From NCBI RefSeq assembly GCF_054482525.1, contig NZ_CM137006.1: a stretch of DNA of 64,000 bases; one strand, given 5' to 3'. Both the position numbers and the translations under genes were made by a program. Position 1 is the first letter of the stretch. Every line of letters begins with the position of its first letter. The notes below the pieces were generated by a model. That model ran no database searches. It saw nothing but the letters and a program-made list of their open reading frames with translations, and was not told the DNA's origin. Shown in pieces: positions 6,176 through 42,707 of this stretch.

Positions 6176-6271
6176 TAACAGGCTTTAATGAAGCAACTAT
6201 AACCGGTTTGGCCTTAATGATTTTTAGTTAAGCTTGGGCATATAAAAGTTTAGAATTGATATAATGGTATT

Positions 6272-6302
6272 CAATTACATTAGTGTTGAGCTAATGTAAT
6301 TG
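6272..6302. terminator. hairpin between convergent genes (12-bp stem caattacattag / ctaatgtaattg, 7-nt loop)
   Basis: Inverted repeat read directly in the gap between the DprA-like gene end (6175) and the RelA/SpoT-like gene end (6357). Confidence 0.45.
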
Positions 6303-6356
6303 ATCCTGATTTAAATATCATCTATCAGAATTGAACAATTTTACATAGTTTATACT

Positions 6357-7346: not shown

Positions 7347-7354
7347 TAATTAGC

Positions 7355-8446
7355 TCATTCCTGAAGGGTTATCTTGTCCTTGATGAGGATTGTTGTCCAC
7401 TCAGCAGGTTTACCATCTTTATCGAGTTCACCTATAGTAGATTCAATTACAATATGGCTTTTAAAAACTTCCGCAGGGGCTGTGATTTTTATATTTTTAC
7501 TAAAGTTAAGCTTTCTTGTTTTTAATTTGCTTTCAATATGCTCGTTGTCTCTTGTGAAAGAGGTTTGTGGTATACCAGATTCATGAGCATACTCAAGATA
7601 AAGATCCTTAATACTATCATCAAAAAATCTTTCAGCATAATCTTTAGCTGAAATTACATCCGATTTTTCATGTTTAAGATATGTAACTAATGCATTTTTA
7701 AGCACATTTTTCTTTTCCTCGCTGACATCCAATTCATTAAGAAATTCACTCGTTTTTTCATAGAAATTCTTTGTTGTGCGGGCACTTGTTTCTGGGTAAC
7801 CGCAACCTAAAAAATTTTGATAAAAATATTGTGCTGCAGCTTTACCATCCGACTTACTGATTTGATAGTCAGAAATCATCACATCCCAAGATTTATTAAG
7901 ATCAGTATTATCAAGAGAATTGGTTGATTGGAAAAAACCGGCAGTTTTATAAAGTTTTGTGGATGGTGTAAGTAATATTTCTTCAACGAATTTTAATGAT
8001 ATTTGGCCCGTTTTATCGTCGATTACTTTTTCATATGCACTATAAATATCAGCCTTGATAATTCCAATGAATTTTCTTTTATTTACACCATAGTCGCCAG
8101 AAAAGATTACTACAATTCCGCCTGGAATTGCTCGTCTTGTCTGCGCATCTGCCAGTTTATTAGCTATTGTGTAAGTCTCATCAATATAATCCTCTCCCTC
8201 TTTATCAATTAAAGTTGTAGCAATATAAGGAACATAATCTTTTCCATGCTCCTTTATTTGCATTTTTACGGCTTTAGAACCATCACCTAAAGCGTCGATT
8301 ACTCGTGATTTAAAACCTTGCAAGGCATCAGCATCAAATTTTATAAATGAAGAACCTCTTGTTGGTTCTATTTTGTTTCCTTCTTCGTCGCGCTGATGAA
8401 TTTGGTGGATAATTATTTTGTTAATATTCATTTTGCTGATATTCAT
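7355..8446 (-). CDS. NdpA/YejK-like (NA37 family) nucleoid-associated protein homologue
   Basis: 363 aa ORF. N-terminus IIIHQIHQRDEEG resembles the E. coli YejK IALHQLIKRDEQ region as I recall it. AT-rich. 17-nt gap to upstream gene. Confidence 0.55.
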   Translation of the reverse strand: MNISKMNINKIIIHQIHQRDEEGNKIEPTRGSSFIKFDADALQGFKSRVIDALGDGSKAVKMQIKEHGKDYVPYIATTLIDKEGEDYIDETYTIANKLADAQTRRAIPGGIVVIFSGDYGVNKRKFIGIIKADIYSAYEKVIDDKTGQISLKFVEEILLTPSTKLYKTAGFFQSTNSLDNTDLNKSWDVMISDYQISKSDGKAAAQYFYQNFLGCGYPETSARTTKNFYEKTSEFLNELDVSEEKKNVLKNALVTYLKHEKSDVISAKDYAERFFDDSIKDLYLEYAHESGIPQTSFTRDNEHIESKLKTRKLNFSKNIKITAPAEVFKSHIVIESTIGELDKDGKPAEWTTILIKDKITLQE

Positions 8447-8463
8447 TTCTGTGTAGTTCCATC

Positions 8464-8931
8464 TTATTGATTATCTGATTTTATATTTTTGCTTTCAATA
8501 TATTCTTTGTGAATATTATTCCATTCTTGACTGTCTTTTTCCCAAATAGATTTATATTCATCAAAAAGACTATCAATATCTGACTGGGTTACATCTTCTT
8601 TGGATTTTAAGTAATTAACTTTGTTTCTAAGTTGATACATGGCTAGCAAAGTAGCTTTTTGCCTAAACCATAATTTTTGATAATCAAATCTTGCAGTCCA
8701 CCCACTAACTAGAGTAAGACAGGCACTCACAATAAGAGCAGAATTTTTCTGTATTTTTTCATATCCAGATAAATCGAAGGCTAATATCAGTGTAGTAATA
8801 GTGCTCAAAAATATAGTCATGAAAAAAAATATTTTTAATTTTTTTTTATTCCATTTCGCCTTGCACTTTATTATGTTGATACTTTTATGGATTTCATCCA
8901 GTAAAAACTGTTGAGAAGATGTTATAGACAA
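8464..8931 (-). CDS. small membrane protein with two predicted transmembrane helices (SLATT-like topology, unverified)
   Basis: 155 aa ORF; hydrophobic stretches IFFFMTIFLSTITTLILAF and SALIVSACLTLVSGWTA. First codon is TTG; an internal ATG (MTIFL...) is an alternative start. Confidence 0.45.
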   Translation of the reverse strand: MSITSSQQFLLDEIHKSINIIKCKAKWNKKKLKIFFFMTIFLSTITTLILAFDLSGYEKIQKNSALIVSACLTLVSGWTARFDYQKLWFRQKATLLAMYQLRNKVNYLKSKEDVTQSDIDSLFDEYKSIWEKDSQEWNNIHKEYIESKNIKSDNQ

Positions 8932-8971
8932 TTATCTCACCTGAAATATTTTCACATTGGTAATAAAACTA

Positions 8972-9011
8972 CTCGCACTAACTGGTATGAGCTCATACCA
9001 GTTAGTGCGAG
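8972..9011. promoter_or_regulatory. perfect 40-bp palindrome (ctcgcactaactggtatgag / ctcataccagttagtgcgag) between integrase 3' end and the AT-rich operon
   Basis: Read directly; the two 20-nt arms are exact reverse complements centred on gagctc. A U-rich tract follows on the minus strand, so it may terminate the integrase transcript. Confidence 0.5.
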
Positions 9012-9175
9012 CATGGCTACCGCATTTGATGTGCTCAACAGCTTTGTATTGAGATACTTTTAACAATGTTGTATTTAACTAGCTGATACTATTAATTATA
9101 AATGAGAATCAGAGCAAAAACGAGCGGTAGGTAAGATATAGACCGAAAGCATATAAAACCATAAATATCAAATCA

Positions 9176-10378
9176 TTACACTACCGCATGTAAGATTCTA
9201 CGTACAGAGTGTAGATCAATCAAATAGTCTGAATACCACTGCATCATCTCTCTTCGCCCCTCCAGATATTGCGCATGGTTGTACGTCCCACGAATCGCAT
9301 TCTTATCGACATGCGCAAGCTGGGTTTCAATCCATGCCGTGTTGAACCCTTCCTCGTGCAAAATCGTACTCATCGTGTGACGGAAACTATGCCCCGTTAC
9401 CTTCCCCGTATACCCAATCCGTTTGAATACCTGATTAATACTCGCTTCACTCATCGTTTTACGTGGATCATTGCGCCCTGGGAACACCAAAGGATATTGC
9501 CCGGACATTACTTTGAGCTGTTGTACGATTTCTAGCGCTTGGGTAGAGAGGGGTACAAGATGGGGCCGTTTCATCTTCATACGCTCTGCAGGTATTTCCC
9601 ACACCGCTTTCTCAAGATCAAACTCACTCCAGAAAGCACCTCGAAGCTCGCCAGTACGAACTCCCGTAAGGATAAGCAGACGAGCGGCAAGAACAACTAA
9701 CGGGCTTCCTGTATAACCTGCGAGAGCTTTAAAGAAGTCTGGTAACTCCTCTACTGACAGGAAGGGATAATGCTTCGATTCATGCCCTGACATCGCGCTG
9801 GTTAGGTCCGCTGCAGGATTGTATTCCGCGCGACCTGTAACGATGGCATAACGAAAGACTTCGCTGCAGCGCTGGCGAACCTTCTTGGCCTTCTCTGTCG
9901 CGCCACGGCTTTCGATTCGACGCAGCACATTAAGCAGAACCAGCGGTTTGATTTCATTCACTGGCAGTTGGCCGATATAGGGGAAAATATCTTTATTGAA
10001 GGCTTCGATAATATCGGAGGCATAGCCTTCTGACCACCGGCTCACCTTAGTACCGTGCCACTCAAGCGCCACAGACTGGAACGTGTTGTTGAGCTGCACA
10101 TCGCGAACCAGCTTTTCTTCTTTCTTTGCGAAAGACGGGTCGATACCCTCGGCCAGCTTTTTCTTGGCTTCATCACGCAGAGCCCTCGCTTGTGCAAGGG
10201 AAACAGCCGGATAGACCCCAAAAGCCATACGCTTCTCTTTTCCATTGAAGCGATATTTCATTCGCCAGTATCGAGAACCAGAGGGAACGACTTCAAGATA
10301 CAAGCCAGCACCATCTGCCAGCTTATAGGCTTTCTCTTTGGGTTTAGCAGCGTCTACCTGTCGCGCATTAAGCTTCAT
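9176..10378 (-). CDS. int: P4-type tyrosine integrase (site-specific recombinase)
   Basis: ORF 9176..10417; likely start is the ATG at 10378 (MKLNARQVDAAKPKEKAYKLADGAGLYLEV...) with GGAG 9 nt upstream. Sits directly beside the tRNA-Thr 3' end. Confidence 0.85.
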   Translation of the reverse strand: MKLNARQVDAAKPKEKAYKLADGAGLYLEVVPSGSRYWRMKYRFNGKEKRMAFGVYPAVSLAQARALRDEAKKKLAEGIDPSFAKKEEKLVRDVQLNNTFQSVALEWHGTKVSRWSEGYASDIIEAFNKDIFPYIGQLPVNEIKPLVLLNVLRRIESRGATEKAKKVRQRCSEVFRYAIVTGRAEYNPAADLTSAMSGHESKHYPFLSVEELPDFFKALAGYTGSPLVVLAARLLILTGVRTGELRGAFWSEFDLEKAVWEIPAERMKMKRPHLVPLSTQALEIVQQLKVMSGQYPLVFPGRNDPRKTMSEASINQVFKRIGYTGKVTGHSFRHTMSTILHEEGFNTAWIETQLAHVDKNAIRGTYNHAQYLEGRREMMQWYSDYLIDLHSVRRILHAVV

Positions 10379-10541
10379 TGGGGGCATCTCCCTGGACCGA
10401 ACACAGAATGCCCCCACTTATGCCCCCAACTGCGACTTGATTTCGGTTGAGTCCAGTTGATAACAGGAGATAAGATACGGGCCAGAAACCGCAGTATACG
10501 GGCTTTTAGTTGATTTCGGTAGACTTGGGAAGAGTTTGAAA

Positions 10542-10617
10542 TGGTGCCGATAATAGGAGTCGAACCTACGACCTTCGCATTACGAATGCGCTGCTCTACC
10601 AACTGAGCTATATCGGC
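10542..10617 (-). tRNA. thrW: tRNA-Thr (anticodon CGU), thrW-like
   Basis: Reverse complement reads GCCGATATAGCTCAGTTGGTAGAGCAGCGCATTCGTAATGCGAAGGTCGTAGGTTCGACTCCTATTATCGGCACCA, 76 nt with CCA end and anticodon loop TTCGTAA. Confidence 0.9.
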
Positions 10618-10731
10618 CCTGAAAGGACATGTTCACGAACGTGAATCACGGTGGACAAGGTTAAAACTAACCGGGCGATGCGTCAATGGCCTTGTGAATC
10701 AAATGGCTACTTTTGCATCACCCGATTTTAT

Positions 10732-21642: not shown

Positions 21643-22430
21643 CTAGCGCGTTCGCTGCGAATGCACCTGCTGCTTATCCAGCTTTTGCACCAGCGGCTGC
21701 ACCACTTTATCCCCATGCTGACCAAAGTATTGATACAGCGTATCGGACGCACTTTTGGTCAGCACCATAATCTCAATGCGTCGGTTGCCCGCGCTTTGCG
21801 GATTTTTCGCGTCCAGCAGCATCTGGTCCGCCATCGCGCTCACCTGCATCACTTTATCTTCCGGCATTCCGGCCTCTTCCAGCACCCGACGAGCCGAAAG
21901 CGCGCGATCGCCCGAAAGGTTCCAGTTGTTGTAGATATTGTTTTTGTAGGCCATCGCATCGGTATGCCCGGTAATAATAATTTTGTTATCGAGCGAGTCG
22001 AACACTGGCGCGAGCTCCACCAGCAAAGTTTTAAAGAACGGCATAATCTGTGCGCTGCCGCGTTCAAACATATTGCGGTTCTGGTCATCTTTAATCAGCA
22101 CGCGCAGTCCCTGGGGAACAATCTCCATCTCCAGATTCGCTTCCATATGTGCATCACGGGCAATGGTGTTGATACTGGTCGCCAGCTCGCCAAGCTCAGT
22201 GGCTGATTTCTTCTTCAGCAGCGCCGTTTTCTCATTGACGTCACGCGCTTTTTTCTCCGTCTCTTCCGGCACCGCCACGGTGGCAGGTTTTGGCGGATGA
22301 GACGGGCTGATTTTATTTAACGGCGACAACCCGCCGCCATTGAAAATCGACTGCCCGTGCAGCGCGGCGATAATGCTTTCACGCTCGGATTTACTGACGC
22401 TGTTGACAATCAACTTTATCGTCGTCACCA
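21643..22430 (-). pseudogene. lafU: lateral flagellar MotB-like motor protein, 5'-truncated remnant
   Basis: ORF 21643..22533 has an OmpA-like MotB C-terminal domain but no N-terminal TM segment; 5' end overlaps lfhA remnant. Boundary approximate. Confidence 0.6.
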
Positions 22431-24112
22431 AAGGGGCCGAGCGTATTTCCGAGGTTTCTGCCCGCTTTACCTTAGACGCGATGCCCGGTAAACAGATGGC
22501 GATTGACGCCGATCTTAACGCTGGGTTGATCAACCAGGCGCAGGCGCAAACCCGGCGTAAAGATGTTGCCAGCGAGGCCGATTTCTACGGCGCGATGGAC
22601 GGGGCATCGAAGTTTGTGCGCGGGGACGCCATCGCCGGGATGATGATTCTGGCGATCAACCTGATCGGCGGCGTCTGTATCGGCATCTTCAAATACAACC
22701 TGAGCGCCGACGCCGCCTTCCAGCAGTATGTGCTGATGACCATCGGCGACGGGCTGGTGGCGCAGATCCCGTCCCTGCTGCTCTCCACCGCGGCGGCAAT
22801 TATCGTCACCCGCGTCAGCGACAATGGCGATATCGCCCATGACGTGCGCCACCAGCTGCTGGCAAGCCCGTCGGTGCTCTACACCGCCACCGGGATCATG
22901 TTTGTGCTGGCGGTGGTGCCGGGGATGCCGCATCTGCCATTTTTGCTGTTCAGCGCCCTGCTGGGTTTTACCGGCTGGCGGATGAGCAAACGCCCGCAGG
23001 CGGCGGAGGCGGAGGAGAAAAGCCTCGAAACGCTGACCCGCACCATCACCGAAACCAGCGAGCAACAGGTCAGTTGGGAGACTATTCCGCTGATCGAACC
23101 CATCAGTTTAAGCCTCGGTTACAAACTGGTGGCGCTGGTCGATAAAGCGCAGGGTAACCCACTCACCCAGCGTATTCGCGGCGTGCGGCAAGTGATATCC
23201 GACGGCAACGGCGTGCTGCTGCCGGAGATCCGTATTCGGGAAAACTTCCGCCTCAAGCCCAACCAGTACGCCATATTCATCAACGGCATTAAGGCCGATG
23301 AAGCGGATATTCCGGCGGATAAACTGATGGCCCTGCCCTCCAGCGAAACCTACGGCGAGATTGACGGCGTGCTGGGGAACGACCCGGCGTACGGGATGCC
23401 GGTCACCTGGATTCAGCCTGCGCAGAAAGCGAAGGCGCTGAATATGGGGTATCAGGTGATCGACAGCGCCAGCGTGATTGCCACCCATGTGAACAAGATT
23501 GTCCGCAGCTATATTCCTGATTTGTTTAACTATGACGATATTACTCAGCTGCATAACCGTTTGTCGTCGATGGCACCGCGACTGGCGGAAGATTTGAGCG
23601 CGGCGCTCAATTACAGCCAGTTGCTGAAAGTGTACCGCGCGCTGCTGACCGAAGGCGTTTCCCTGCGCGATATCGTCACTATCGCCACCGTGCTGGTCGC
23701 CAGTAGCACAGTGACCAAAGATCATATCCTGCTGGCGGCCGATGTGCGCCTGGCATTGCGGCGCAGCATTACCCATCCGTTCGTTCGCAAGCAGGAGCTG
23801 GCGGTGTATACGCTGAATAATGAACTGGAAAATCTGCTGACCAACGTGGTGAATCAGGCGCAACAGGGCGGGAAAGTGATGCTCGACAGCGTGCCGGTCG
23901 ATCCGAATATGCTCAACCAGTTCCAGAGTACGATGCCGCAGGTAAAAGAGCAGATGAAAGCGGCGGGGAAAGACCCGGTGCTGCTGGTGCCGCCGCAGTT
24001 GCGTCCTTTGCTGGCGCGTTATGCAAGGTTGTTTGCGCCGGGGTTGCATGTGCTGTCGTATAACGAAGTGCCGGACGAGCTGGAGTTGAAGATTATGGGG
24101 GCGTTGAGTTGA
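22400..24112 (+). pseudogene. lfhA: lateral flagellar export protein FlhA homologue, 5'-truncated remnant
   Basis: ORF 22340..24112; FlhA-like sequence begins around INFIVVTKGAERISEVSARFTLDAMPGKQMAIDADLNAG, so roughly the first 130 aa are missing. Boundary approximate. Confidence 0.6.
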
Positions 24113-24142
24113 TGGGGGAGACTATATAAGGTCTCGGACTGT

Positions 24143-24230
24143 CCCCTCGCCCCTTTGGGGAGAGGGTTAGGGTGAGGGGAAAGTGCGCGCTGAGTCCCTC
24201 ACCCCGGCCCTCTCCCCAAAGGGGCGAGGG
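24143..24230. repeat. inverted pair of a ~35-bp GC-rich palindromic unit (REP/BoxC-like intergenic repeat)
   Basis: 24143..24178 is the reverse complement of 24196..24230 apart from 2-3 nt; a related unit recurs at 26879..26916. Confidence 0.6.
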
Positions 24231-24273
24231 AGAAAAACGTGTACGACTTTAACTTTTTCGCAGTATTGCCGTC

Positions 24274-25032
24274 CTACAAAATCGTCTCTTCCGTCAAAAT
24301 CCTGCGCGCGCCTAAAAAATGATCCTGCCAGAAAGGTTCAGCTAACCGACTTACCCGAATGGTTTCCCCCGTGCGCGGCGACTCGATAAACTGACCGTCT
24401 CCCAGATACACGCCCATATGATCGGCAATCTCGCGGCTGTGGATATGGAAAAACAGCAAATCTCCCCGGCGCAGGTCGTTGTTCGCCACAATCGTTGCCC
24501 GATGGTAGTGATACATCTCATTGGCCGTGCGCGGGAGCTTCGCCTCGAGGATCTTGTTGTAGGCATAAAAAACCAACCCGCTACAGTCGAAGCCTTGATC
24601 GGGCCGCGTGCCGCCCCAGACGTAAGGCTTGCCAAGCTGCTGCTCCAGGCGGTAAATCGCCACTTCGGTGATGTTGTGTAGATGGTCGCTGCTTAAGAAA
24701 TGGTTGTTCTCCGCCAGCGCCTGCCAGCGTCTGTCACTTGCCTTGAGCGGCGCAGGAAACCATTCTGGATGCTGTTTTATCTGTTCGCGGTTGTGCTGGC
24801 GCAGCGCCTTTCTGCTTTCGGCATTGCCTTCCACAATATAGCTGGCCTGTTTTTTCAGATGGGTTTGGTACTGTTTTAATAAACGCGCACGGTTTTGCAT
24901 CCGCTGGCGGGCGGCGTAGCTGAAAGAGATATGTGATGTGGTGGCGCTGGCGAGTAAAGGGAGCAAAACGCATAACGAAAACACGCCTGGATGCAGAAAT
25001 CTGCCGAGCAAGAACGAAGACATGAAGGACAT
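24274..25032 (-). CDS. yafL: NlpC/P60-family peptidase YafL
   Basis: 252 aa with signal peptide and NlpC/P60 motifs (KPYVWGGTRPDQGFDCSGLVFYAY ... ADHMGVYLGDGQFIES). Confidence 0.85.
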   Translation of the reverse strand: MSFMSSFLLGRFLHPGVFSLCVLLPLLASATTSHISFSYAARQRMQNRARLLKQYQTHLKKQASYIVEGNAESRKALRQHNREQIKQHPEWFPAPLKASDRRWQALAENNHFLSSDHLHNITEVAIYRLEQQLGKPYVWGGTRPDQGFDCSGLVFYAYNKILEAKLPRTANEMYHYHRATIVANNDLRRGDLLFFHIHSREIADHMGVYLGDGQFIESPRTGETIRVSRLAEPFWQDHFLGARRILTEETIL

Positions 25033-25323
25033 AAACCGGCTGAATGAAGGTGAGAATTTTAAAAGACCAGAGGAGTAAACGGGATTATTAATTGCTTATT
25101 TGCATATTACTATTGAGGTTTCATAATCTTAGGAAATAAATGATACATGCGCTTTTCGGACTATTGAAAACTGCCCCTGTGCTAAATTTGTAAACCCTGC
25201 GCCGACAGGCTTGCGTAAAACTCTTTTGGTGATAATGTGAGCCTTCCCAATCCAGACTATTCCGATTTGGGATCCATTTTGCCGTCCTGGCGTGTGTAAC
25301 CGTTTTATCAAGGAATAAGCAGT

Positions 25324-26064
25324 ATGCGTAAAATCGCATTAATTCTTGCGATGTTGTTGATCCCGTGCGTTTCGTTTGCCGGTTTGCTGGGCAGCAGTAG
25401 CTCAACCACGCCAGTGAGCAAAGAGTATAAGCAGCAGTTGATGGGATCCCCTGTCTACATCCAGATCTTCAAGGAAGAACGTACGCTCGATCTCTACGTC
25501 AAAATGGGCGAGCAATATCAACTGCTCGACAGCTATAAAATCTGTAAATATTCCGGCGGCTTAGGGCCAAAACAGCGTCAGGGCGATTTCAAAAGCCCGG
25601 AAGGGTTTTATAGCGTCCAGCGTAATCAGTTAAAACCAGACAGCCGTTACTACAAAGCAATTAATATTGGATTCCCCAATGCCTATGACCGTGCGCATGG
25701 TTATGAAGGGAAATACCTGATGATCCACGGCGATTGTGTTTCCATCGGCTGCTACGCGATGACCAATCAGGGTATTGATGAGATCTTCCAGTTCGTTACT
25801 GGTGCGCTGGTGTTTGGTCAGCCGAGCGTGCAAGTGAGTATTTACCCGTTCCGCATGACCGACGCCAATATGAAGCGCCATAAGTATTCCAACTTTAAGG
25901 ACTTCTGGGAGCAACTGAAACCGGGCTACGACTACTTTGAGCAAACCCGTAAGCCACCGACCGTTTCTGTGGTCAATGGCCGTTACGTGGTCAGCAAGCC
26001 GTTAAGCCACGAAGTTGTGCAACCACAGCTGGCATCAAACTACACGCTCCCCGAGGCAAAATAA
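25324..26064 (+). CDS. yafK: L,D-transpeptidase-family periplasmic protein YafK
   Basis: 246 aa, signal peptide [19 protein letters not shown]; YkuD-type active-site region [14 protein letters not shown]. Confidence 0.9.
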
Positions 26065-26802
26065 GCGCCATTCGCCTGGCATAATCTTTTGCCAGGTTTC
26101 ATTGCCCGTCAGCGGCTGTGTCGCAATCACCGTGACCACATCATTCGGTGTGGTCTGCGAGCTGAAGTCGATTTCCACATCCTGATCCAGCAACGTTGCC
26201 ACGCCAAACGGCGCGCGGCGGGTGATCCAGTGTAAATTAGTCGAGCAATACGCCATTACATAGCGCCCGTCCGAAAGCAGCATGTTGAAAACGCCCTTCT
26301 GCCGCAGTTCATCCGCCAGTGAGGCGATATATTTAAACACTGCCGCCATGTTGCCCGGTGTGCGCGGGTAACGCTGCGTTAATTTATGCAGGAGCCAGCA
26401 GAAGGCTTTTTCGCTGTCGGTTTCACCGACCGGGCGGAAGTTGCCGGTTTCCAGTGATTTATAGCCCGTCAGTTGTCCGTTATGGGCATAAGTCCAGTTA
26501 CGCCCCCATAACTCGCGGGTAAACGGGTGAGTATTTTCCAGCGCCACCTCGCCCCGATTCGCCTGGCGAATATGAGCCACCACCGAACAGGATTTTATCG
26601 GGTAGTCCTGGACAAGTTTGGCGATGGGGGAATTAAAGCTGGGTTGTGGATCTTTAAATGTGCGACAGCCTTTACCTTCGTAAAAGGTGATGCCCCAGCC
26701 ATCTTTATGTGGCCCGGTTCCACCACCACGCTGTACAAGCCCGGTGAAACTAAAGCAGATATCGGTAGGGACGTTGGCGCTCATCCCGAGCAATTCGCAC
26801 AT
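26035..26802 (-). CDS. yafJ: class II glutamine amidotransferase YafJ
   Basis: ORF 26035..26817; likely start MCELLGMS at 26802 (N-terminal Cys nucleophile after Met). Confidence 0.9.
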
Positions 26803-26878
26803 GGGTAACCTCCACAACAGCGGGAGCGCATGGCCCCCGGCGAAGATTGATTAAAAAGTAAAAAGGTGCAGGCTGTTA

Positions 26879-26916
26879 CCCTCACCCCGGCCCTCTCCCT
26901 GAAAGAGAGAGGGAGA
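26879..26916. repeat. third copy of the GC-rich palindromic unit (ccctcaccccggccctctccc...)
   Basis: Shares the ccctcaccccggccctctccc core with the units at 24143-24230. Confidence 0.5.
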
Positions 26917-26923
26917 AAAGACC

Positions 26924-27502
26924 TTACTTAACCATCTCTTTTTCAATTAACTGGATCAGGATATGGATAACTTTAATGTGGATCTCCTGAATGCGGTCGG
27001 CATAACCAAAGTGCGGTACGCGAATTTCGATATCCGCTGTGCCAGCCATTTTACCGCCGTCTTTACCGGTCAGGGTGATCACTTTCATCCCCTTCTCACG
27101 CGCCGCCGCGATCGCTTTGATCACGTTTGCAGAGTTACCGGAGGTGGAGATCCCCAGCAGTACATCGCCTTCGCGACCTACCGCTTCAACGTAACGGGAG
27201 AAAATATCATTGAAACCAAAATCGTTACCGACGCAGGAAATATGACTAACGTCAGAAATGGCAATCGCCGGGTAGCCCGGACGGTTTTCACGGTAGCGAC
27301 CGGTCAACTCTTCAGCAAAGTGCATAGCGTCGCAATGGGAGCCGCCGTTGCCGCAGGAAAGCACTTTGCCACCGGCTTTAAAGCTGTCTGCTAACAGGAC
27401 CGCCGCGCGCTGAATGGCGTGAATATTGGCGTCATCTTTTAAAAAGTTAGCCAGCGTTTCCGCCGCTTCGTTCAGTTCGTTACGAATAAGATCCTGGTAC
27501 AT
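26924..27502 (-). CDS. gmhA: phosphoheptose isomerase GmhA
   Basis: ORF 26924..27664; GmhA-like sequence starts at [21 protein letters not shown] (192 aa), SIS domain. Confidence 0.95.
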
Positions 27503-31797: not shown

Positions 31798-31855
31798 CCA
31801 GGGCAAGATTACGAAAGCCCGCTCCCTGCAAGGACTGACGCCAGGTAGTTTCTGT
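31798..31855. repeat. ~57-bp direct repeat copy 2, overlapping the 3' end of the H-repeat transposase gene
   Basis: Near-identical to 31665..31721; overlaps the stop codon region of the ORF at 31809..32945. Confidence 0.7.
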
Positions 31856-32945
31856 CCATGGCTGCTTTTCGCATCTTACGTCTTAACCCTGCCTTGAATA
31901 CATTATCATTCGTTAAAATATTAATAGCGATGTGCCGTATCCCTGAAAATAATTCTGCGGCGTTTCCTCTTCTTATTTTGCAGTCGTCTTCATTCATTAC
32001 CACGTCCAGACGCCAGTGCAGCTTATTCTCCACGTGCCAGTGATTTCGGATCGCTGTGGCGAACTTTTCTGCGGTTAAATCAGCAGAACTGATATAATAT
32101 CTGACCGTCATTTCTGGCTCTTTCTTTTGTTCTGCTATTATTGACCGAAAGGAGACTGCCACGCATAATTTCTTCAGTCCTTTCCATTCAAACGTGAAAT
32201 CAATAAGTTCATCAGGGACATCGCAAACAATATGAAGACGGATTTCTTCTCTGCCGTGACTCTTTTCACTTATTTCGTAACTGTCATGCTCTGGATTATT
32301 TAATTCTTTCAGCGGAAATTTTCCATCAAAGGCTTTATTTAGTCGTCCCTGATTTCCTTTTACAGCGAATAAATAATCACCGCCCTGTTTTTGCATCTTC
32401 TCTGCAATATCTTTCTGGCAACCCATCGCATCAGTTGTGATGATTTTTCCTTTAATATCCAGCATCTTAAGAAGTTCAGGGATAGCTGTGATCTCATTGG
32501 ATTTCTCATCCGTCCTGATCTGTCCGATAACCAGACTGTGCATTGTTGAGAACGCACTAATGACATGAATCGCTCCCTTGCGGCGACTCTTGTCATAAGA
32601 ATGCCGGAGTGTTTTTCCATCAATTGCGATGACGTCTTTATCATCTGAAGTATGGCAATCTCGCATCCAGTTAATAAAGCACTCGTGAAATTTTGCAGGA
32701 CTGATACAGGATACAACTCTGGCGATGGTATCGTGAACAGGAATACCATTTTCAAAATCACCGTATTGTTTTAAAAAATCGAGATGTGTTTCCCCAAAAT
32801 CCTCTATATCTTCCCAACCTTCCGCACCCGAAATAACGGCACAAATAGTCAACAGTAGAATATCCGATAATTTATTTTCCACTTTCCAGCCTTGTCTGTA
32901 ATCGGGGATAATAGAAATATGTTCCATCAATTTTTTAAGCTCCAT
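31809..32945 (-). CDS. H-repeat-associated protein (ISAs1-family transposase, YhhI/YdcC-like)
   Basis: 378 aa translation resembles E. coli H-repeat proteins that accompany Rhs elements ([32 protein letters not shown]...). Confidence 0.8.
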
Positions 32946-33225
32946 TTTGTTCTCCTTAATTATGTAAGGAGTATTTGATCATGTATAAGCAATAAAAAAC
33001 AGCTTTAGGTAATGAGGAATATCTCAATTTTTAAACATAAAATGCGAATTACTTAGTACAAAAAAGCAGCGTTACGTGATCTTTCCCTGGTCCCTGTCCC
33101 GGATTGTAGTACCGGTGCCAGTTGTAGTGCAGTTCGGATTCGTCGTCATACTGCTAGCCCGGATGGCGGAGCAGTTGCTCTAGTCACTCAGAATATTGTA
33201 ATAGTGATAGAGTGCAGTGCCGGTT

Positions 33226-33624
33226 TCAATATCCTAACGCTGGTCTTTTGCCTGTATTAACTGATTTAGCTGGTTTGCTACATATTAATGCCTTCAGATT
33301 TTCCCTTTCCTTGTCTGTGATACTGTCGCAAACCCTACTAGCCCATTCTACTTCACTCTTCTCCAGGCATTCTATTTTCTTATTGCTCATTGTTCTAATG
33401 TTTGGTGTTGCATCTCCATTTAATAACATCCATGTTTCATTTTTCTTCATAAAACATCTTCCATTATGTTCAAAGATATTAGGTGTGAATATATTATCAG
33501 AATCCCATGTTACGACTTGCTCGAGGGCTATATTATCTTGATAGTCCATGCCAGCATTATAATAATCACAAGATATAATTATCATGGAAATAATTATCAC
33601 TAATATATTCCCAAGCATTTCCAT
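33226..33624 (-). CDS. hypothetical small protein with N-terminal hydrophobic signal/lipobox-like segment; candidate Rhs immunity protein
   Basis: 132 aa AT-rich ORF immediately downstream of the Rhs gene; N-terminus ILVIIISMIIISC. Confidence 0.35.
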   Translation of the reverse strand: MEMLGNILVIIISMIIISCDYYNAGMDYQDNIALEQVVTWDSDNIFTPNIFEHNGRCFMKKNETWMLLNGDATPNIRTMSNKKIECLEKSEVEWASRVCDSITDKERENLKALICSKPAKSVNTGKRPALGY

Positions 33625-33873
33625 TTACTTTACCTCTTGAAATTCAAATGGGAATCCAGTGAAAGGACCTTTAGGCATAATATATCTTTGATATCCATAA
33701 AGCTCACCGAGCACTTGTAGGCTTATAGGCGCATTTGTATTCATAGAGGGGTTGTTAAACCCGCACGCCTCAAAAATCATGTTCGTTCGGCTAAAACAAT
33801 TATTTAAAACAGGAAGAGGCCCGAGGTTAATAGTTTTTAGTTTTTTATTAAGGTCTATTGCCTTATTCATCAT
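33625..33873 (-). CDS. hypothetical small protein downstream of Rhs (candidate immunity or orphan toxin-tip fragment)
   Basis: 82 aa AT-rich ORF in the same frame as the Rhs gene, beginning 11 codons after its stop. Confidence 0.3.
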   Translation of the reverse strand: MMNKAIDLNKKLKTINLGPLPVLNNCFSRTNMIFEACGFNNPSMNTNAPISLQVLGELYGYQRYIMPKGPFTGFPFEFQEVK

Positions 33874-33906
33874 ACATTGTTCTTCTTCATCTGTTGTATC
33901 TATTAT

Positions 33907-36900
33907 TCAAATCCAGGTATCTCTGCGGGGTTGCATCTTTTTAAAATAATCAGAGACAGAGGCTCCCATCTCATCCCCAGTTCCCGAACTCATTAATCCA
34001 TATCGATTTGCCGCCGCAGCATGCCCAAAAGGATTATCAGGAACGGGGCCGTTACCTATTATCATAGTACTAAGCCCTAATGGATCAACGTGTTGCACTG
34101 GATTCAGCGGATATTGGTACAGATTCCATCCCCCCTTCAGCCCAATCGGGTCCTGGATGATATACCGCCCCTGCAACGGATCGTAGTACCGGTGACGGTT
34201 ATAATACAGCCCCGACTCCTCATCGTGTTGCTGCCCTGGCAGACGGTACGGCTGGTGCAGGTGATGCGGGTTTTCCTCATTCAGCAGGTTGCCCCATTCA
34301 TCATACTCCCCGCTCCACGCCGTATTTCCGTCTTCGCTGATGAGCGCCAGCGGCAGGCCCCGGTGGTCGCAGTGGTAAAGATGAACTTTTCGCGCCGGTG
34401 TGTATTCCGGCTCCACCTGTTTTTCCAGTTGCTCCACCGTCAGCCCGCACTGCGCAAGCCACGCCCGGCTTTCACTGCTCACGCGGTCTGCCCGGATTTC
34501 CCCCTCCAGCCTGTCCAGCAGCCGCACCAGTTCAGCCGGGAACACCACGCCGTGTCCGTCCTCGCTCCCTTCCTGCTGGAGCTTCTCCGCCAGGCTCCGC
34601 CGCTGCGTTTTCTCCCGCTCGCCGTTGTCTGTTTCGATGCGGATGAGCGGTGTGAAGCTTCCCGGCTCGTATACCGTCTGGATACGTGTGCTGTCGGTCT
34701 GCACCGTCGTCAGGTGGTCGCCGTCCCAGCCGTACCACGTCACCTCCGGTTTACGCGACAGCGACATCCACCCCGTCAGGTCACGCTCCCGCCGCCATAC
34801 CCGTTTCGCCATTCGCCGTCCCAGCGGGTCGTAGAGGTAGCGGCTCTCGACCAGTGGCTCTCCATGCTGTATCCGCGTGTAGAACACCAGGCGGTGCTGG
34901 CTGTCGTAGTGGTGGGTCCGCTCGTCGTCCGTCCGTATCACACCCGCCGGGATGCGGTCCGTCTTCTCCGTCAGCCTGCCGTATTCATCGTGGCGGTAGA
35001 CATAGTGCGCATCCTCCGCGATGCGGTTATCCGGCCACACTGTGAGTGTACTGTCCGGGTGCAGCTCCGGGTCCGGCAGCCGGTTGCCCGCCGGGTCCGT
35101 GGCATACGGGATGCGGATGTCCAGGTCCGGTGCGAGGGTGCGCACGCTCTCCAGCCTGCCCGTGGCGCTGTAGCCGTATTCCCGCGTCTGTCGCGGGCCG
35201 CTGATGCGCACCAGGTCGCCGTTGTCATTCCACCCGTAGTCACGGTCATACACCAGGCTGTTCAGGTGCTGACTCTGTAACTGACCTGCGGGGGTGTATG
35301 TGCTGGTCAGTTCATATGCGGAATTACTGCCTGCCATGCTGCCGAAGCTGCGCACCGTCTCACGGTGCAGCCTGTCCCGCGTATACTCGACCAGCGGCGT
35401 CCCGCCCAGCTTCATTCCCGCCAGGTAACCGCTGCCATACGTCAGCCACTCCACCGGCGGCAGGCTGTCCGGCGTGACGCGGTTTGCCAGCCCCTGTTCG
35501 TTGTATGCCTGTTTCGTCTCATGCTGCCACAGCAGTTCCCCCGTCTCCGGGTTCTTCACCGTCTGGCGCTCACTGGTCAGACGGCCTTTATCGTCATAGC
35601 CGTAGTGGACCGCCACACGGTGGCCTTCACTGGTATGGCTGAGGGTGGTTAACCACCCGTGCTCATCCTACTGCCACTGCTCTGCCGGGTCGCCGTTCAC
35701 CGTCCGGTGCGTGATGCGGTCTGCTTCATCGTAGTACCACTGCGTGACCTGCCCCTCATCCTCGCTGCGGATGAGCTGCCCTGTGGCGCTGTACCGGTAA
35801 CGCTGTGTCCTGCCATCAAAGCCGCGCTGCTCCGTCAGGCGGTCCAGCACATCGTAGGTAAATTCACTCCGGCTGCCGTTCTCGTTGGTCAGCACGGTGA
35901 TGCGCCCGGCAGCGTCATACCCCATGCTGCGCGTCAGCCCGCCTTCCGTCACACTCACCGGACGCCCGCGTTTATCATATGCGATGGTGCTGCGTTTACC
36001 GTCCGGTGATATCGTTGCTGTCAGGTCGCCTGCGGCACTGTACTCATAACGGGTTTCACGCCCCTGCGCATCCTTCTGCCCTGTCAGCCTGCCGCGGCTG
36101 TCATAGAGACTATAAATACTGAGACCTTCCTCCCGGTGAACGGCGATTTGTTGACCGTACCGGTCATACTCATACCGCGTCATGTACCCCGAGCAGTCCG
36201 TGAAGGTCCGAAGCTGACCGTACCGGTTTCGCGTTATTCTCCGCGTTACCCCGATTCCGTCTTCCACCGCGCCGGGCAGGCTACTGCGGGGGGGAGTCAT
36301 AAAACCAGCGCGTAATGTTACCGTTGCGCGAGGTCTCTTCTGCCAGTCGGCCCTGACGGTCATATTTCCGGCTGCTGCGTAAACCATCCGGATATGTCAC
36401 TGAAGTCAGTTGCAACTGGCTGTTATAGCCATACCGCACCGTCCTGCCGTCCGGCAGTATCACTGAAGTCAGCTTTCCAGACGCCATATGCAGCCGGTAC
36501 ACCGTCCGCCGCCCCGCCGCATCCGTCTGCGCCTTCAGCCTCCCCGCCTCATCATACTCGCTGCGGGTGATGCTCCCGTCCGCATGCTCCTTCTTCACCA
36601 CCCGCTTCAGGCCACCTTCGCCTTCCGTGTACAGCACCTCCCGCCGGTTCAGGCTGTCCGTGATGGTCACACGGTCCTGCCCGTACTCAAAGCGGTAGTC
36701 AAGTCCCTCCGGGTTGACCTGCTCCGTCACCCGACCGGTATCATCATACCGGTAGCGGCTCTCCGGCCTCCCTGCATAATGGTGCGCCACCATCCGCCCG
36801 GCGTGCTCCGCATCATAAGTAAACCCGCGCACCTGCGTCCCGCTGCGGTCATACACCGCCCGCAGTTCTCCGCTGGCCGTGTACGTGTAGCGCGCCAGCG

Positions 36901-37855
36901 GCGCAGTCGGCTGTTCATCCGGGTATGCCGGGTCGTGTGTCAGCCACACCGCCTCCAGCCGGATACCGTTATCGGCACCGTATTCTGTACCGGCGGGCAG
37001 CGTGTCGGGGAAAGCTGAAGAAGAGGAAGCAGAACGGGGACCTGCAGGGGAAGATAAAGACGTGGCGCGCTGTTTACGGAAGGCTTCCGCCCGCTGCGCC
37101 TGCGTGGTCAGCGCCAGGTGAAAACGACGGCCCGCGCCGTCCGTCACCCTGGTGATTTCGCCAGCCAGTTCGCCTGCGGCCTCGCGGTGGAAAGCCAGTG
37201 AAAGCCCGAAACCGTCCACCACGCCCGTCAGCACCCGGTATGCAGGCGGCTCCGGCGGCAGCACTTCGTCCGCCTCCGGCACCCGCTCCGGCCAGCCGAG
37301 TATCCACCACGGCCCCTGAAGGCTGTTTGCCGCCAGGTACACATGCGGACTCAGGCGAACATCTTCCGGCAGCACCTGCCAGAGCGCGCTTAGCGGCTGC
37401 GAACTGTGCTGCTCCGCCACCCCGCCCCGCGCCAGCCAGAACGACTCACTGCGGCTGTAACTTATCTCGCCGGGAAACAGGGGTTCAAAGTGAATACTCC
37501 TGCCGCCACTGTCGTTGAGTATCAGGCCTTCATCGCGTATCTGTAAGCGGATATCGAAGGGGGCTTTCCAGCCGGGACCAAACACCCCCACCGGCGCGGG
37601 TGTCCTGGTTCGGTAGCTGCTGTAAGCGCGAGAAAGAATAAACGGCAGCGGGCCGGGCAGCGCAAGGTCCGTCTCGCCCGGCAGCACCTTCGCACCCAGT
37701 AGCGGGTTCACCGGGTTAGCATAGGTAATCCCTCCCGGACACACCGAGCAGGCCACTCCTGTCGGCGCACCTATCAGCCCCCCTGCTGAACCCTGCACAA
37801 TATCCAGTCCCTTGCGGGTCATGTCACCCTGCCGCGCCGCCGGTTTTCCGCTCAT
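33907..37855 (-). pseudogene. rhs: PAAR-Rhs family protein (T6SS effector type), disrupted by a +1 frameshift and an in-frame TAG
   Basis: Three consecutive ORFs (36281..37855, 35668..36387, 33907..35616) tile one Rhs protein: PAAR-like N-terminus, YD repeats, DPIGL core end. Frameshift at the G7 run 36288..36294; in-frame TAG at 35665..35667. Confidence 0.8.
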
Positions 37856-37931
37856 GGTTTATTCCTTTTCTTTTACCTTACATGTCCATACAAATAGTTA
37901 CCTATACTGTCTTTGAATATTGCCCTACCAT

Positions 37932-38381
37932 TTAAAGCCCACCTATTTCTTGCGACAGAAAAGGGATTTCTTTTTTAATCCAATCTATCATTTCATTTTT
38001 TTCAAAACATACGTTAATGCCATTCACACTTCCACATTCACCAAAACCATCAAAATAAATTTCACATTTATTATTTTTATTCGAAACAATGTCAACCCCC
38101 CATCTTATATCGTTATTCCCCTCCTTCCTGAAATACTTCATTTGCAATAAATCAATTATCTCACCAGCATAAAAATCGCTAACCCCATTCACCACCACTT
38201 TATGTTTGTATATTCTCTTGAGACCTTCCTTGCTAAGCGGGGTTAAGGTGGTAACATATGCTGGAAGATTAATTATTTCTATCGTTTTCACACTATCTAT
38301 TCCACACAATTCATTCACTCGCCCCATCCCCAATACCGAAGCAGAAAATAGAGACAATAAAACCATCAAATATTTCATCAT
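37932..38381 (-). CDS. putative secreted immunity protein for the upstream Rhs toxin
   Basis: 149 aa ORF 12 bp downstream of the Rhs C-terminal domain; signal peptide MMKYLMVLLSLFSASVLG; AT-rich. Confidence 0.45.
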   Translation of the reverse strand: MMKYLMVLLSLFSASVLGMGRVNELCGIDSVKTIEIINLPAYVTTLTPLSKEGLKRIYKHKVVVNGVSDFYAGEIIDLLQMKYFRKEGNNDIRWGVDIVSNKNNKCEIYFDGFGECGSVNGINVCFEKNEMIDWIKKEIPFLSQEIGGL

Positions 38382-38393
38382 AAAAAAATATCA

Positions 38394-41300
38394 CTATTCT
38401 GGCGTGCCATTTATTGTTGCCGTCTGCGTTGGTGTATTCACACGATAATACACTCCATTATATGCTGTTCTGGTACACTCACCTAAAGTTTTCGCCGCAT
38501 GCTGTTCAATTAAAGTGATAACTCTCGCCTCTTCTTTATTTTTATATTGTTCATCCGCACGTCTCACAAGCCCCATATAACCATCCTTATCAATAAGATA
38601 TAAGTGCGCATGAGCAAACTCATGCCCCAAACCTAATGCAGGTGATTGTGATTTCGATTTTAAATCAGTTGAACAAAATAAAGCCGCCTTACCATTCCAA
38701 TATATAGTCATTTTATCCGGGTCAAATCTAACGTCGGTTTCATCAATATACTCTATCTTTATGGTTTCTTCAGAGCTTGATAAAAAATCTATAGCTTCTT
38801 TCATTCGTGAATCTTGTTTTAAATACTCAACAGCCTGATTAAAATCACTTGGATCACCGTTAACATGGAATTTTAAACCCAAAGAATCTATAAACCGAAC
38901 AGGGTTTAATGGATATTTATACAGATTCCATTCACCTCTTAGCCCGATTGGATCCTGGGTGATATACCTTCCCTGTAGCGGGTCATAGTACCGGTTCCGG
39001 TTATAGTACAGTCCTGATTCCTCATCATGCTGCTGCCCCGGCAGACGGTATGGCTGGTGCAGGTGATGCGGGTTCTCCTCATTCAGCAGGTTGCCTCATT
39101 CATCATATTCCCCACGCCATTCCGTTGCTCCTTCGGTACTGATGAGCGCCAGCGGCAGCCCCCGGTGGTCACAGTGATAAAGATGAATTTTTCGCTCAGG
39201 TAAATAAACCGGCTCTATCTGTGCCGCCAGCCGCTCCACCGTCAGCCCGCACTGTGCCAGCCACTGGCGGCTTTCACTGCTCACGCGGTCTGCCCGGATT
39301 TCCCCCTCCAGCCTGTCCAGCATCCTCACAAGTTCTGCCGGGAACACCACACCGTGGCCGTCCTCGCTTCCTTCCTGCTGCAACTTCTCCGCCAGGCTCC
39401 GCCGCTGCGTTTTCTCCCGCTCGCCGTTGTCTGTTTCGATGCGGATGAGTGGTGTGAAGCTTCCCGGCTCGTATACCGTCTGGATCCGGCTCTGTTGTGT
39501 CTGTATCGTCGTCAGCCTGTCACCGTCCCAGCCGTACCACGTTACCTCCGGTTTACGCGACAGCGACATCCACCCCGTCAGGTCACGTACCCGCCGCCAC
39601 ACCCGTTTACCCGTCCGGCGGCCCAGCGGGTCGTAGAGGTAGCGGCTCTCCACCTGCGGCTCGCCATGCTGTATCCGCGTGTAGAACACCAGGCGGTGCT
39701 GGCTGTCGTAGTGGTGGGTCCGCTCGTCGTCCGTCCGTATCACACCCGCCGGGATGCGGTCCGTCTTCTCCGTCAGCCTGCCGTATTCATCGTGGCGGTA
39801 GACATAGTGCGCATCCTCCGCGATGCGGTTATCCGGCCACACTGTGAGTGTACTGTCCGGGTGCAGCTCCGGGTCCGGCAGCCGGTTGCCCGCCGGGTCC
39901 GTGGCATACGGGATGCGGATGTCCAGGTCCGGTGCGAGGGTGCGCACGCTCTCCAGCCTGCCCGTGGCGCTGTAGCCGTATTCCCGCGTCTGTCGCGGGC
40001 CGCTGATGCGCACCAGGTCGCCGTTGTCATTCCACCCGTAGTCACGGTCATACACCAGGCTGTTCAGGTGCTGACTCTGTAACTGACCTGCGGGGGTGTA
40101 TGTGCTGGTCAGTTCATATGCGGAATTACTGCCTGCCATGCTGCCGAAGCTGCGCACCGTCTCACGGTGCAGCCTGTCCCGCGTATACTCGACCAGCGGC
40201 GTCCCGCCCAGCTTCATTCCCGCCAGGTAACCGCTGCCATACGTCAGCCACTCCACCGGCGGCAGGCTGTCCGGCGTGACGCGGTTTGCCAGCCCCTGCT
40301 CGTTGTATGCGTGTTTCGTCTCATGCTGCCACAGCAGTTCCCCCGTCTCCGGGTTCTCCACCGTCTGGCGTTCGCCGGTCAGGCGGCCTTTATCGTCATA
40401 GCCATAGTGGACGGCAACACGGTGGCCTTCGCTCAGGTGGCTGATTTCTCTCAGCCAGCCGTGGCCATCATACTGCCACTGCTCTGCCGGTTCGCCGTTC
40501 ACCGTGCGGTGAGTGATACGGTCCGATTCATCGTAGTACCAGAGGATGACAAGCCCCTCATCTTCACTCTGCGTGAGTTTTCCGGTCAGGTCATAATGAT
40601 AACGTTGCGTCCGCCCGTCAAAGCCGCCCTGCTGTACCAGGCGGTCCAGCGCATCGTAGCTGAAGTCGCTGTGACTGCCGTTCTCGTTGGTCAGGCTGAT
40701 GACACGTCCTGCCGCGTCATACTCCATACTGCGCGTCAGCCCGCCCTGCGTGGTGCTGACCGCCTTTCCCCACGCATCGTACTGTGTCTCGCTCCGGTTG
40801 CCGTCCGGGGTGATAACGGCAGTCAGGTCGCCTGCGGCGTTGTATTCATACCGCGTTTCACGGCCCTGTGCGTCTTTCACCGAGGTTAACCGGCCACGGT
40901 TGTCATAGCGGCGGTAAAGGCTGATGCCTTCCTCGCGGTGGACCGCCGTCATCTGGCCGAAGCGGTCATACTCATAGCGGGTCTGGTAGCCCGAGCAGTC
41001 GGTGAACGCCAGCAACTGACCGTAGCGGCTCCAGGTCATCTGCCGGGTGCTGCCCGTCGCATCTGTTGTCGTGGCCGGTAATTCACTGTGCGGATTATCA
41101 TAAGCATACCGGATGACGTCCCCACTGCGCGATGTCTCCGATACCAGCCTGTCCCGCTCATCATACGCCCGGCGGCTCTCCAGCCCGTCCGGGTACACCA
41201 CCGCCGTCACCAGGTTCCCGTCGTTATAGTAAAATTTCGTCTCCCGCCCGTCCGGCGTGGTGATGTCCGTGATGTCGCCTGACACCACATTCAGACCGTA

Positions 41301-42641
41301 CTCTGTCCGCCGTCCCGCCGCGTCCGTCTGCGCCGTAAGCCGCCCCACCGGGTCATACCCGCTGCGCGTGACGCTGCCGTCCGCCAGTTCTTTTTTCACC
41401 ACCCGCTTCAGCCCGGCCCCGCCTTCTGTATGCAGCACCTCACGCCGGTTCAGGCTGTCCGTGACGGTGATGCGGTCCTGCTCATACTGGTAGCGGTAAC
41501 TCAGGCCTGCCGGGTTCAGCTGCTCCACCACCCGCCCCGCATCGTCGTAGCGGTAGCGCATCTCCGGCCTTCCCGCGTAACGGTGCGCCACCATCCGGCC
41601 CGGGTGCTGCGCGTCATACGTGAAAGCGCGCACCTGCGTATTGCTGCGGTCATATACCGCCAGCAGTTCACCGGCTTCCGTATACGTGTACCGCACCAGT
41701 GGCGCACCGGGCAGGCTCTCCGGGTATGCCGGGTCGTGCATCAGCCACACCGCCGAAAGACGGATGCCCCTGTCGGGGCCGTATTCGGTACCGGGCAGTG
41801 TGTCGGGGAACGCTGAGGCTGAGAGAGGGCGGGAACGGTCAGAAGAAGATAGCGAAGAGGTGCGGGCCTCTTCCGCACGCTGCGCCTGCGTGGTCAGCAC
41901 CAGACGGAACTCCCGCCCGGCACCGTCCGTCACGCCGGTGATTTCCCCGGCCAGGTCACCGGCGGCCTCACGCCGGTACGTCAGCGTCCGCCCGAAGCGG
42001 TCCGCCAGCCCGGTAAGCACCCGGTACGGCGGCAGCGGCGCTGGCAGTACGTCCTCAGCACCCGGCACCCGCTCTGACCACCCCAGTATCCACCACGGTC
42101 CCTGTGCGCTGTTGGTCGCCAGGTAAAGATGCGGGCTTAACCGGATATCCGGCGGCAGCGACGCCCACAGCCGTGCCAGCGTGTGGCCGTCCGGCTGCGC
42201 TGCCTTACCACCGCGAACCAGCCACATTGACTCGCTGCGGCTGTACACCGCCTCCCCCGGCAGCAGCGGCTCAAGGTGAATGCTCCGCCCGCCGTTGTCG
42301 TTGAGTATCAGTCCGTCATCACGTAGCTGTAAGCGGATATCAGAAGGCGCTTTCCAGCCGGGGCCAAAAATCCCCACCGGCGCAGGCGTCTTCGTCCGGT
42401 AGCTGCTGTAGGTGCGGGAGAGAATGAACGGCAGCGGGCCGGGCAGCGCAAGGTCCGTCTCGCCGGGCAGCACCTTCGCCCCCAGCAGCGGATTTACCGG
42501 GTTGCCCGAAGTCATCCCGCCCGGACACACCGAGCACGCCACGCCGGTGGGCGCGCCAATTCTTACACCTGCCGAACCCTGGACAATGGGACCGCCATAC
42601 TGAGTCATATCTCCCTGACGCGCCGCTGGTTTTCCGCTCAT
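38394..42641 (-). pseudogene. rhs: PAAR-Rhs family T6SS effector with HExxH (zinc-metallopeptidase-like) C-terminal domain; frame interrupted by in-frame TGA
   Basis: Main ORF 39096..42641 (1181 aa) ends at a TGA where the paralogue has TGG (Trp); the same frame continues through the DPIGL core end into a C-terminal domain containing [10 protein letters not shown]. Confidence 0.75.
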
Positions 42642-42707
42642 GATTCAATTCCTTCTTCTGTTTATTTTTAATGCTTGTTTGTTACTGAATACCGAACAGG
42701 TACGGGA

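Follow-up and report, generated by a model that had tools for sequence, protein, structure and literature searches.

An inverted BoxC pair at the rayT position and a yafL-dpaA spacer free of dinJ-yafQ beside the Flag-2 scar of an Escherichia coli chromosome

In Escherichia coli K-12, REP sequences and the transposase gene rayT lie between the Flag-2 remnant lfhA' and yafL, and the toxin–antitoxin pair dinJ-yafQ follows yafL. A 64,000-nucleotide stretch of contig NZ_CM137006.1 (assembly GCF_054482525.1; hereafter the window, meaning the whole stretch analysed) holds a GC-rich palindromic repeat at the first of these places and a short spacer at the second. What is this repeat, and do the two apparent absences share one history? 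The initial annotation, which relied on an assumed K-12 gene order, considered rayT and dinJ-yafQ absent and the palindrome to have been left at the rayT position.

Gene order and the segments replaced relative to K-12

The assumed order is borne out by the annotation of K-12 MC4100, which reads lfhA' - REPs - rayT - REPs - yafL - dinJ - yafQ - dpaA - yafJ - three REPs - lpcA, and by direct alignment of the window to K-12. Outside yafL the alignment consists of colinear blocks with 97-98.6% identity, separated by three replaced segments, and the gene content differs as had been claimed. At the lfhA-yafL site, 896 bp of K-12 (four REPs, rayT, two REPs) stand against 161 bp in the window; at the yafL-dpaA site, 838 bp (the yafL 5' end, a promoter region and dinJ-yafQ) against 232 bp (24952-25183); at the yafJ-gmhA site, 151 bp with three REPs against 66 bp. 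The features of the window in this region are as follows.

22394-24112, plus strand: lfhA' (Flag-2 flhA), an N-terminally truncated pseudogene, placed from the SCU-102 annotation by an offset of 4099; open reading frame 22340-24112
24113-24273: lfhA'-yafL spacer, 161 bp, rare allele with the full BoxC pair; its K-12 counterpart is an 896-bp BIME-rayT-BIME cassette
24144-24178, plus strand: BoxC/TMECO unit of type A (TTA second loop), CCCTCGCCCC TTT GGGGAGAGGG TTA GGGTGAGGG, a regular-expression match to the published consensus
24196-24230, minus strand: BoxC/TMECO unit of type B (second loop CCG) in the opposite orientation to unit 1, the two forming a palindrome with 35-bp arms
24269-24277: CCGTCCTAC; the REP beside yafL in K-12, E. 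albertii and Escherichia sp. E1V33 ends in the same 9 nt
24274-25032, minus strand: yafL (C40 peptidase), open reading frame; RefSeq start at 25023; N-terminus of ancestral type
25033-25323: yafL-dpaA spacer, 291 bp, ancestral "empty" allele
25324-26064, plus strand: dpaA (yafK/ldtF)
26035-26802, minus strand: yafJ
26863-26919, minus strand: single, degenerate BoxC element in the yafJ-gmhA spacer, with its triple-block core at 26879-26913; K-12 has three REPs there
26924-27502, minus strand: gmhA (lpcA), separated from yafJ by a 121-bp spacer

Both absences are real. Proteins RayT, DinJ, YafQ, HicA and HicB gave no tblastn match within the 64-kb window. A chimeric megablast query, composed of lfhA sequence and the reverse-complemented rayT and dinJ-yafQ, found a single place on each of the chromosomes of strains PCN033, SCU-102, 19KM1776 and 18KM2445; the lfhA segment is identical in all four, and the identical allele was confirmed in the first three. 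Thus rayT and dinJ-yafQ are absent from these four chromosomes at megablast sensitivity, plasmids and highly divergent homologues lying outside the reach of the search. The yafL-dpaA spacer contains no adjacent dinJ/yafQ open reading frames, and at 291 bp, close to the ~290 bp estimated initially, it has no room for the 542 bp of dinJ-yafQ.

The closest genome to the window is that of E. coli SCU-102, with 99.92% identity across 41 kb, while a 1.5-kb window probe finds a 100% match in PCN033. The window and PCN033 differ in their flagellar surroundings: the window carries dinB, lafU and the truncated lfhA' of a K-12-type Flag-2 deletion scar, whereas PCN033 has an intact Flag-2 locus. The scar (21643-24112), in which lafU overlaps the truncated lfhA', is the same as in K-12, and the 3' end of lfhA' reads ...GGGGCGTTGAGTTGA in the 3'-end comparison. 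Spacers with the full BoxC pair also adjoin an intact Flag-2 flhA in PCN033, O158:H23 CFIAFB20140388 and VCSW7, the first being identical to that of the window and the other two having one or two differences. Since the BoxC spacer occurs beside both scarred and intact Flag-2, the spacer allele is uncoupled from the Flag-2 deletion.

Further variation surrounds this region. An island at tRNA-Thr (thrW; ~4100-10620), which looks like a defence-type island, encodes according to the SCU-102 annotation an integrase, a SLATT-domain protein, a nucleoid-associated protein, a GTP pyrophosphokinase, DprA and a RecQ-family helicase; the matching position in K-12 is occupied by the CP4-6 prophage. Downstream of yafV (~31800-45300), the same annotation places a partly decayed T6SS/Rhs cluster in the order ISAs1 transposase, Rhs core proteins (one frameshifted), vgrG with an internal stop, and hcp. 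The yafL gene itself is unusually divergent from that of K-12 (about 93.8-93.9% identity). Its portion at 24274-24951 is polymorphic, with E. coli alleles up to ~6% divergent that cluster independently of the spacer allele type, a pattern that suggests mosaic recombination.

The repeat as a BoxC pair

An inverted pair of ~35-bp GC-rich units had been described from the sequence, and its arms, 24144-24178 and 24196-24230, are indeed of 35 nt, with 91% complementarity between them and a 17-nt gap. As single-stranded DNA the pair is predicted to fold into a Watson-Crick hairpin of -43.4 kcal/mol (z = -8.8). The BoxC, or PIT, element was reportedly described by Bachellier et al. in 1999 and Hoyne et al. 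in 2000, and to our knowledge no cellular function of BoxC units has been demonstrated. The consensus of the BoxC/PIT/TMECO family, CCCTCNCCC-N3-6-GGGNGAGGG-N3-GGGNGAGGG, was published together with the definition of types A and B (Holder et al., 2015; PMC4666352). Each of the two units fits it exactly, the first (24144-24178) on the plus and the second (24196-24230) on the minus strand, and unit 1 with the next G (24144-24179) is the same as the type A oligonucleotide that follows from the control sequence of that study (PMC4666352). The third unit, also pointed out in the initial annotation, was located between yafJ and gmhA at 26879-26913 on the minus strand. It has one mismatch in block 1, where a G>A change gives CCCTCTCTC, a form shared with PCN033 and absent from the other eight sequenced alleles, and it fits only the two-purine-block pattern. 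The relation between the two sites extends over 57 nt (24180-24236 against 26863-26919; 81% identity). All three units are intergenic, and the core motif was matched 3 times across the 64 kb, where 100 shuffles predict 0.

A census of the repeat family gave about 20 places per chromosome: 21 in SCU-102, 24 in PCN033, 21-25 in nine strains with a 100%-identical allele, and a species median of 18. This is consistent with the numbers published for MG1655, where 23 BoxC/TMECO units lie dispersed in intergenic positions at 18 loci (PMC4666352); the lfhA-yafL site is not one of these 18 because K-12 has REPs there. The window pair shares with the family its three-block consensus, the A and B loops, the intergenic location, the tandem-inverted arrangement, a number of ~20 loci per genome and small internal deletions after which a hairpin persists; nothing essential differs, the third unit being one base off the consensus. 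Judged by its sequence, the window repeat is a BoxC/PIT/TMECO element, neither a REP nor a rayT remnant, and the initial wording that it was "left" at the rayT position does not hold, as it fits the BoxC consensus and not the Y or Z REPs that flank rayT.

The BoxC pair and the BIMEs of K-12 are both GC-rich extragenic palindromes between convergent genes, and the pair might be regarded as a selected functional element, e.g., one that stabilises 3' ends or terminates transcription in both directions between lfhA' and yafL and took the place of the REPs. Such a role would suit its location between convergent 3' ends, where other strains have REPs and Citrobacter a simple terminator hairpin, as well as its very stable predicted fold and the perfect 10-bp hairpin kept by collapsed derivatives. 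However, neither strand has a T-run after the hairpin, the terminator/promoter consensus scan made no call at the pair, and lfhA' is a pseudogene. PIT/BoxC elements had neither promoter nor terminator activity in published tests (PMC4666352), and we consider a selected function unlikely. What is known of the family concerns structure and variability: type A and B TMECO oligonucleotides form an intramolecular purine-motif triplex in vitro by CD and NMR, and the elements lie in regions of raised inter-strain variability (PMC4666352). An Rfam scan of 20-30 kb returned only sub-threshold miRNA-like matches to the long hairpin and no family.

The pair is itself unstable. A 10-nt direct repeat occurs in it, with copies GGGGAGAGGG and GGGGCGAGGG at a distance of 64 bp, and two derivatives that have lost 64 bp, CCCTCGCCCCTTTGGGGCGAGGG and CCCTCGCCCCTTTGGGGAGAGGG (the latter with ...GGGGAGAGGG), differ at the diagnostic A/C position of these repeats, which indicates at least two independent slippage deletions. 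Each collapsed allele keeps a perfect 10-bp hairpin. Parsimony and the repeat structure point to the full pair as the source and the collapsed hairpin as the product. Palindromic TMECO pairs are known to lose small parts while keeping the hairpin (PMC4666352), and the collapse of the lfhA-yafL pair in other strains fits this behaviour described by Holder et al. The single yafJ-lpcA unit also varies: in strains 7/2 (locus 3514-3628) and 31B22CPO057 (7251-7365), GGGAGAGGGAGAAAAG is shortened by 6 bp to GGGAGAAAAG, so that here too a BoxC unit has lost a few nucleotides by repeat-mediated deletion.

Alleles of the three sites and their polarity

Four kinds of lfhA-yafL spacer occur in the sampled genomes: BIME-rayT-BIME, REP-only, hicAB and BoxC. 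The REP-only alleles are 152 or 274 bp long and have an odd number of REPs, the outcome to be expected of recombination between the directly repeated Z-type REPs flanking rayT. The BoxC alleles comprise the full pair (161 bp) and a 97-bp form without the inner 64 bp. In a census of 5,426 complete E. coli genomes, 3,575 have rayT, 1,480 have hicAB at the rayT site and 127 have a BoxC-derived allele, while the remaining ~244 genomes are assigned to "REP-only or other" by subtraction, the classes being assumed mutually exclusive. At a coverage of at least 80%, the full pair is counted in 21 genomes, and the collapsed-allele query finds 126, these 21 among them. About 105 of the 5,426 thus have the 64-bp internal deletion, and the collapsed form is ~5 times commoner than the full pair. 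Of the same 5,426 genomes, 3,340 have dinJ-yafQ. The configuration of the window, a full pair with an empty yafL-dpaA spacer, occurs in 19 genomes, and the collapsed form with an empty spacer in 20.

The same spacer can instead hold the hicAB allele (e.g., in E. coli O103:H2 12009). Its lfhA 3' end and the 7 nt with which its spacer begins (TGGGGGA) are also those of the BoxC allele, and its yafL is the closest to that of the window (97.3%). The two differ in that hicAB is a 788-bp toxin–antitoxin insert with its own terminator and a TAA stop of yafL, besides being far commoner. Partial coverage only of the hicAB allele was recorded in ~110 genomes. In E. coli 7/2 (locus 497-984) a hicB-only derivative was seen, with hicA deleted and a different sequence after the lfhA stop.

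The census gave 329 genomes, of 5,426, with the BoxC allele that the window has at yafJ-gmhA. This allele accompanies a BoxC-type lfhA-yafL allele in six of seven further genomes that carry the latter, in PCN033 and in the window; one hicB-only strain also has it. The exception, E. coli NRZ14408 with a collapsed BoxC allele, carries at yafJ-lpcA a REP interrupted by IS1397 (locus 5140-5400). IS1397 inserts specifically into REP palindromic units.

E. coli genomes without RAYT have been described (PMC8049555), and dinJ-yafQ is confined to the EB1A lineage and phylogroup F, which acquired it (PMC6896753). The window feature is a rare combination (~0.4% of genomes) of individually common, already described polymorphisms.

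The polarity of these states was examined with a DpaA scan of one genome per species, which gave 80 loci. All four representatives of other Escherichia (E. albertii, E1V33, MOD1-EC7003 and SCPM-O-B-8794) have RayT between LfhA and YafL and REPs at yafJ-gmhA; none of the four has BoxC in the lfhA-yafL spacer. This argues that rayT reached the lfhA-yafL site early in the history of Escherichia, that its loss here was secondary, by replacement, and that BoxC is derived at both sites. At the second site, both the yafL-dpaA spacer of the window and its YafL N-terminus can be aligned over their full length to E. albertii, E1V33 and SCPM-O-B-8794, whereas K-12 has an unrelated substitute of ~840 bp (a new yafL 5' end and dinJ-yafQ) for window positions 24952-25183. 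The state free of dinJ-yafQ is thus ancestral, in agreement with the published acquisition (PMC6896753). Of the two absences noted initially, both stand, while a common history does not: one is a secondary loss and the other an original state. The polarity is based on four species representatives in a recombining genus, and an old balanced polymorphism, instead of derived states, retains some small probability.

Several side observations belong to this comparison. Most Citrobacter with Flag-2 lack both rayT and dinJ-yafQ, and their lfhA-yafL spacer of 43-44 bp contains a simple hairpin. In species without Flag-2, yafL is also missing and dinB adjoins dpaA. In Lelliottia and Enterobacter species lacking both Flag-2 and yafL, BoxC-type units lie just downstream of dinB (at 4571-4591, 4394-4602 and 4593-4668 of the three respective loci), so BoxC occupies the same neighbourhood in other genera. 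The yafL of SCPM-O-B-8794 is 89% identical to that of the window and clusters with E. albertii, and this strain may be a non-coli Escherichia species. The yafJ-gmhA spacer of Escherichia sp. MOD1-EC7003 reaches 800 bp (locus 7480-8279) and contains ~16 alternating REPs, against three in K-12 and one in SCPM-O-B-8794.

These data bear on the proposal that the BoxC-pair spacer is ancestral in E. coli, with rayT and its BIMEs, or hicAB, inserted later in other strains and nothing lost here. It would agree with the ancestral yafL-dpaA spacer retained by the same haplotype, with Citrobacter, which lacks rayT at the site, and with the left junction: the lfhA end ...GAGTTGA is followed in the window by TGGGGGA, an arrangement common to a hicAB allele and in part (as far as TGGG) to E1V33, whereas in K-12-type alleles a REP overlaps the lfhA stop. 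However, rayT is present in the four Escherichia outside the E. coli lineage, including E1V33 with its ancestral lfhA end, the BoxC allele is as rare as the census indicates, and the Citrobacter hairpin is simple, different and not BoxC. An ancestral BoxC spacer is therefore quite improbable.

The location of BoxC precisely at two ancestral REP/BIME sites raises a further possibility, namely that BoxC spreads by targeting or replacing REP sites, e.g., after loss of RayT. If true, it would give the first handle on the movement of an orphan repeat family. A second locus considered as a case of BoxC replacing REP was gcvP-ygfF of K-12, and it lent the idea no support, as the alternative allele there is a larger missing region and not a REP swap. 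K-12 (locus 631-897) has a BoxC pair after gcvP, followed by ygfF; the pair is missing in ~2,400 genomes, and in the two pair-less genomes examined (loci 972-1137) gcvP lies directly beside bglA, which places the BoxC pair at the edge of a larger presence/absence segment. We give targeting of REP sites little credence.

Junctions of the BoxC spacer and the preferred reading

The window spacer occupies the same lfhA-yafL position as the REP/BIME-2 - rayT (yafM) - BIME-2 cassette of K-12 (Nunvar et al., 2010; PMC2817692). It has no sequence relationship to that cassette: neither GTAG-headed units (Y or Z2) nor a transposase gene occur in it. Searches for the REP Y consensus (up to three mismatches) and for Y/Z tail motifs (up to two) gave no match anywhere in the window, against 9 and 4 in the K-12 region. 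Five "Ycore" matches with up to two mismatches were obtained in the window and set aside: they lack a REP tail, lie outside the region and are likely due to chance. A BoxC unit beside rayT was found in none of the eight rayT-bearing alleles examined. The flanks of the spacer outside BoxC (24120-24143 and 24237-24268) match nothing in the other alleles or in the 80 enterobacterial loci. At the right junction, the sequence CCGTC|CTAC recurs in the REP tail found in K-12, E. albertii and E1V33 (junction comparison and blastn-short). The CCGTC, the 5 nt that lie beyond the overlapped TAG stop of yafL, may be a REP remnant, which is suggestive only.

That the palindrome itself is the footprint of a rayT cassette, i.e., degenerate REPs after RayT- or REP-mediated excision, would accord with its place exactly at the K-12 cassette position, with this CCGTC and with the existence of true excision products, but the reading is largely refuted and very improbable, since the repeat matches the BoxC consensus and resembles neither Y nor Z REPs (no REP motif in the window spacers at 2-3 mismatches), belongs to a family found at ~20 unrelated sites with one unit replacing REPs at yafJ-gmhA too, and differs from genuine rayT deletions, which are REP-only.

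The data are very probably explained by one haplotype of a known hypervariable stretch beside the E. coli Flag-2 scar, with three variable intergenic sites in 2.8 kb. In the proposed course of events, the old BIME-rayT-BIME cassette at lfhA-yafL would have been replaced wholesale by a 161-bp segment with an inverted BoxC pair as its core. At yafL-dpaA the original spacer would have remained uninterrupted, dinJ-yafQ never having been inserted, and at yafJ-gmhA the REPs would have given way to a single BoxC unit. Slippage between the 10-nt direct repeats would then repeatedly remove the inner 64 bp and leave a plain 10-bp hairpin. The anatomy, family identity, allele frequencies, outgroup polarity and two deletion products have been documented above; the route of replacement might have been illegitimate recombination, or the import of a divergent haplotype by homologous recombination.

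For the strain, the absence of RayT implies that its REP sequences should be immobile, and it presumably lacks the YafQ toxin and with it the DinJ-YafQ toxin–antitoxin system. The literature already covers E. coli without RAYT, the patchy occurrence of dinJ-yafQ and the instability of BoxC sites, and the finding has little importance beyond strain annotation, where the repeat is to be identified as BoxC and not as a REP remnant. It does offer a clean natural example of a BoxC palindrome collapsed by repeat-mediated deletion at least twice, and the choice among rayT, hicAB and BoxC at one spacer is a convenient haplotype marker in a recombining region.
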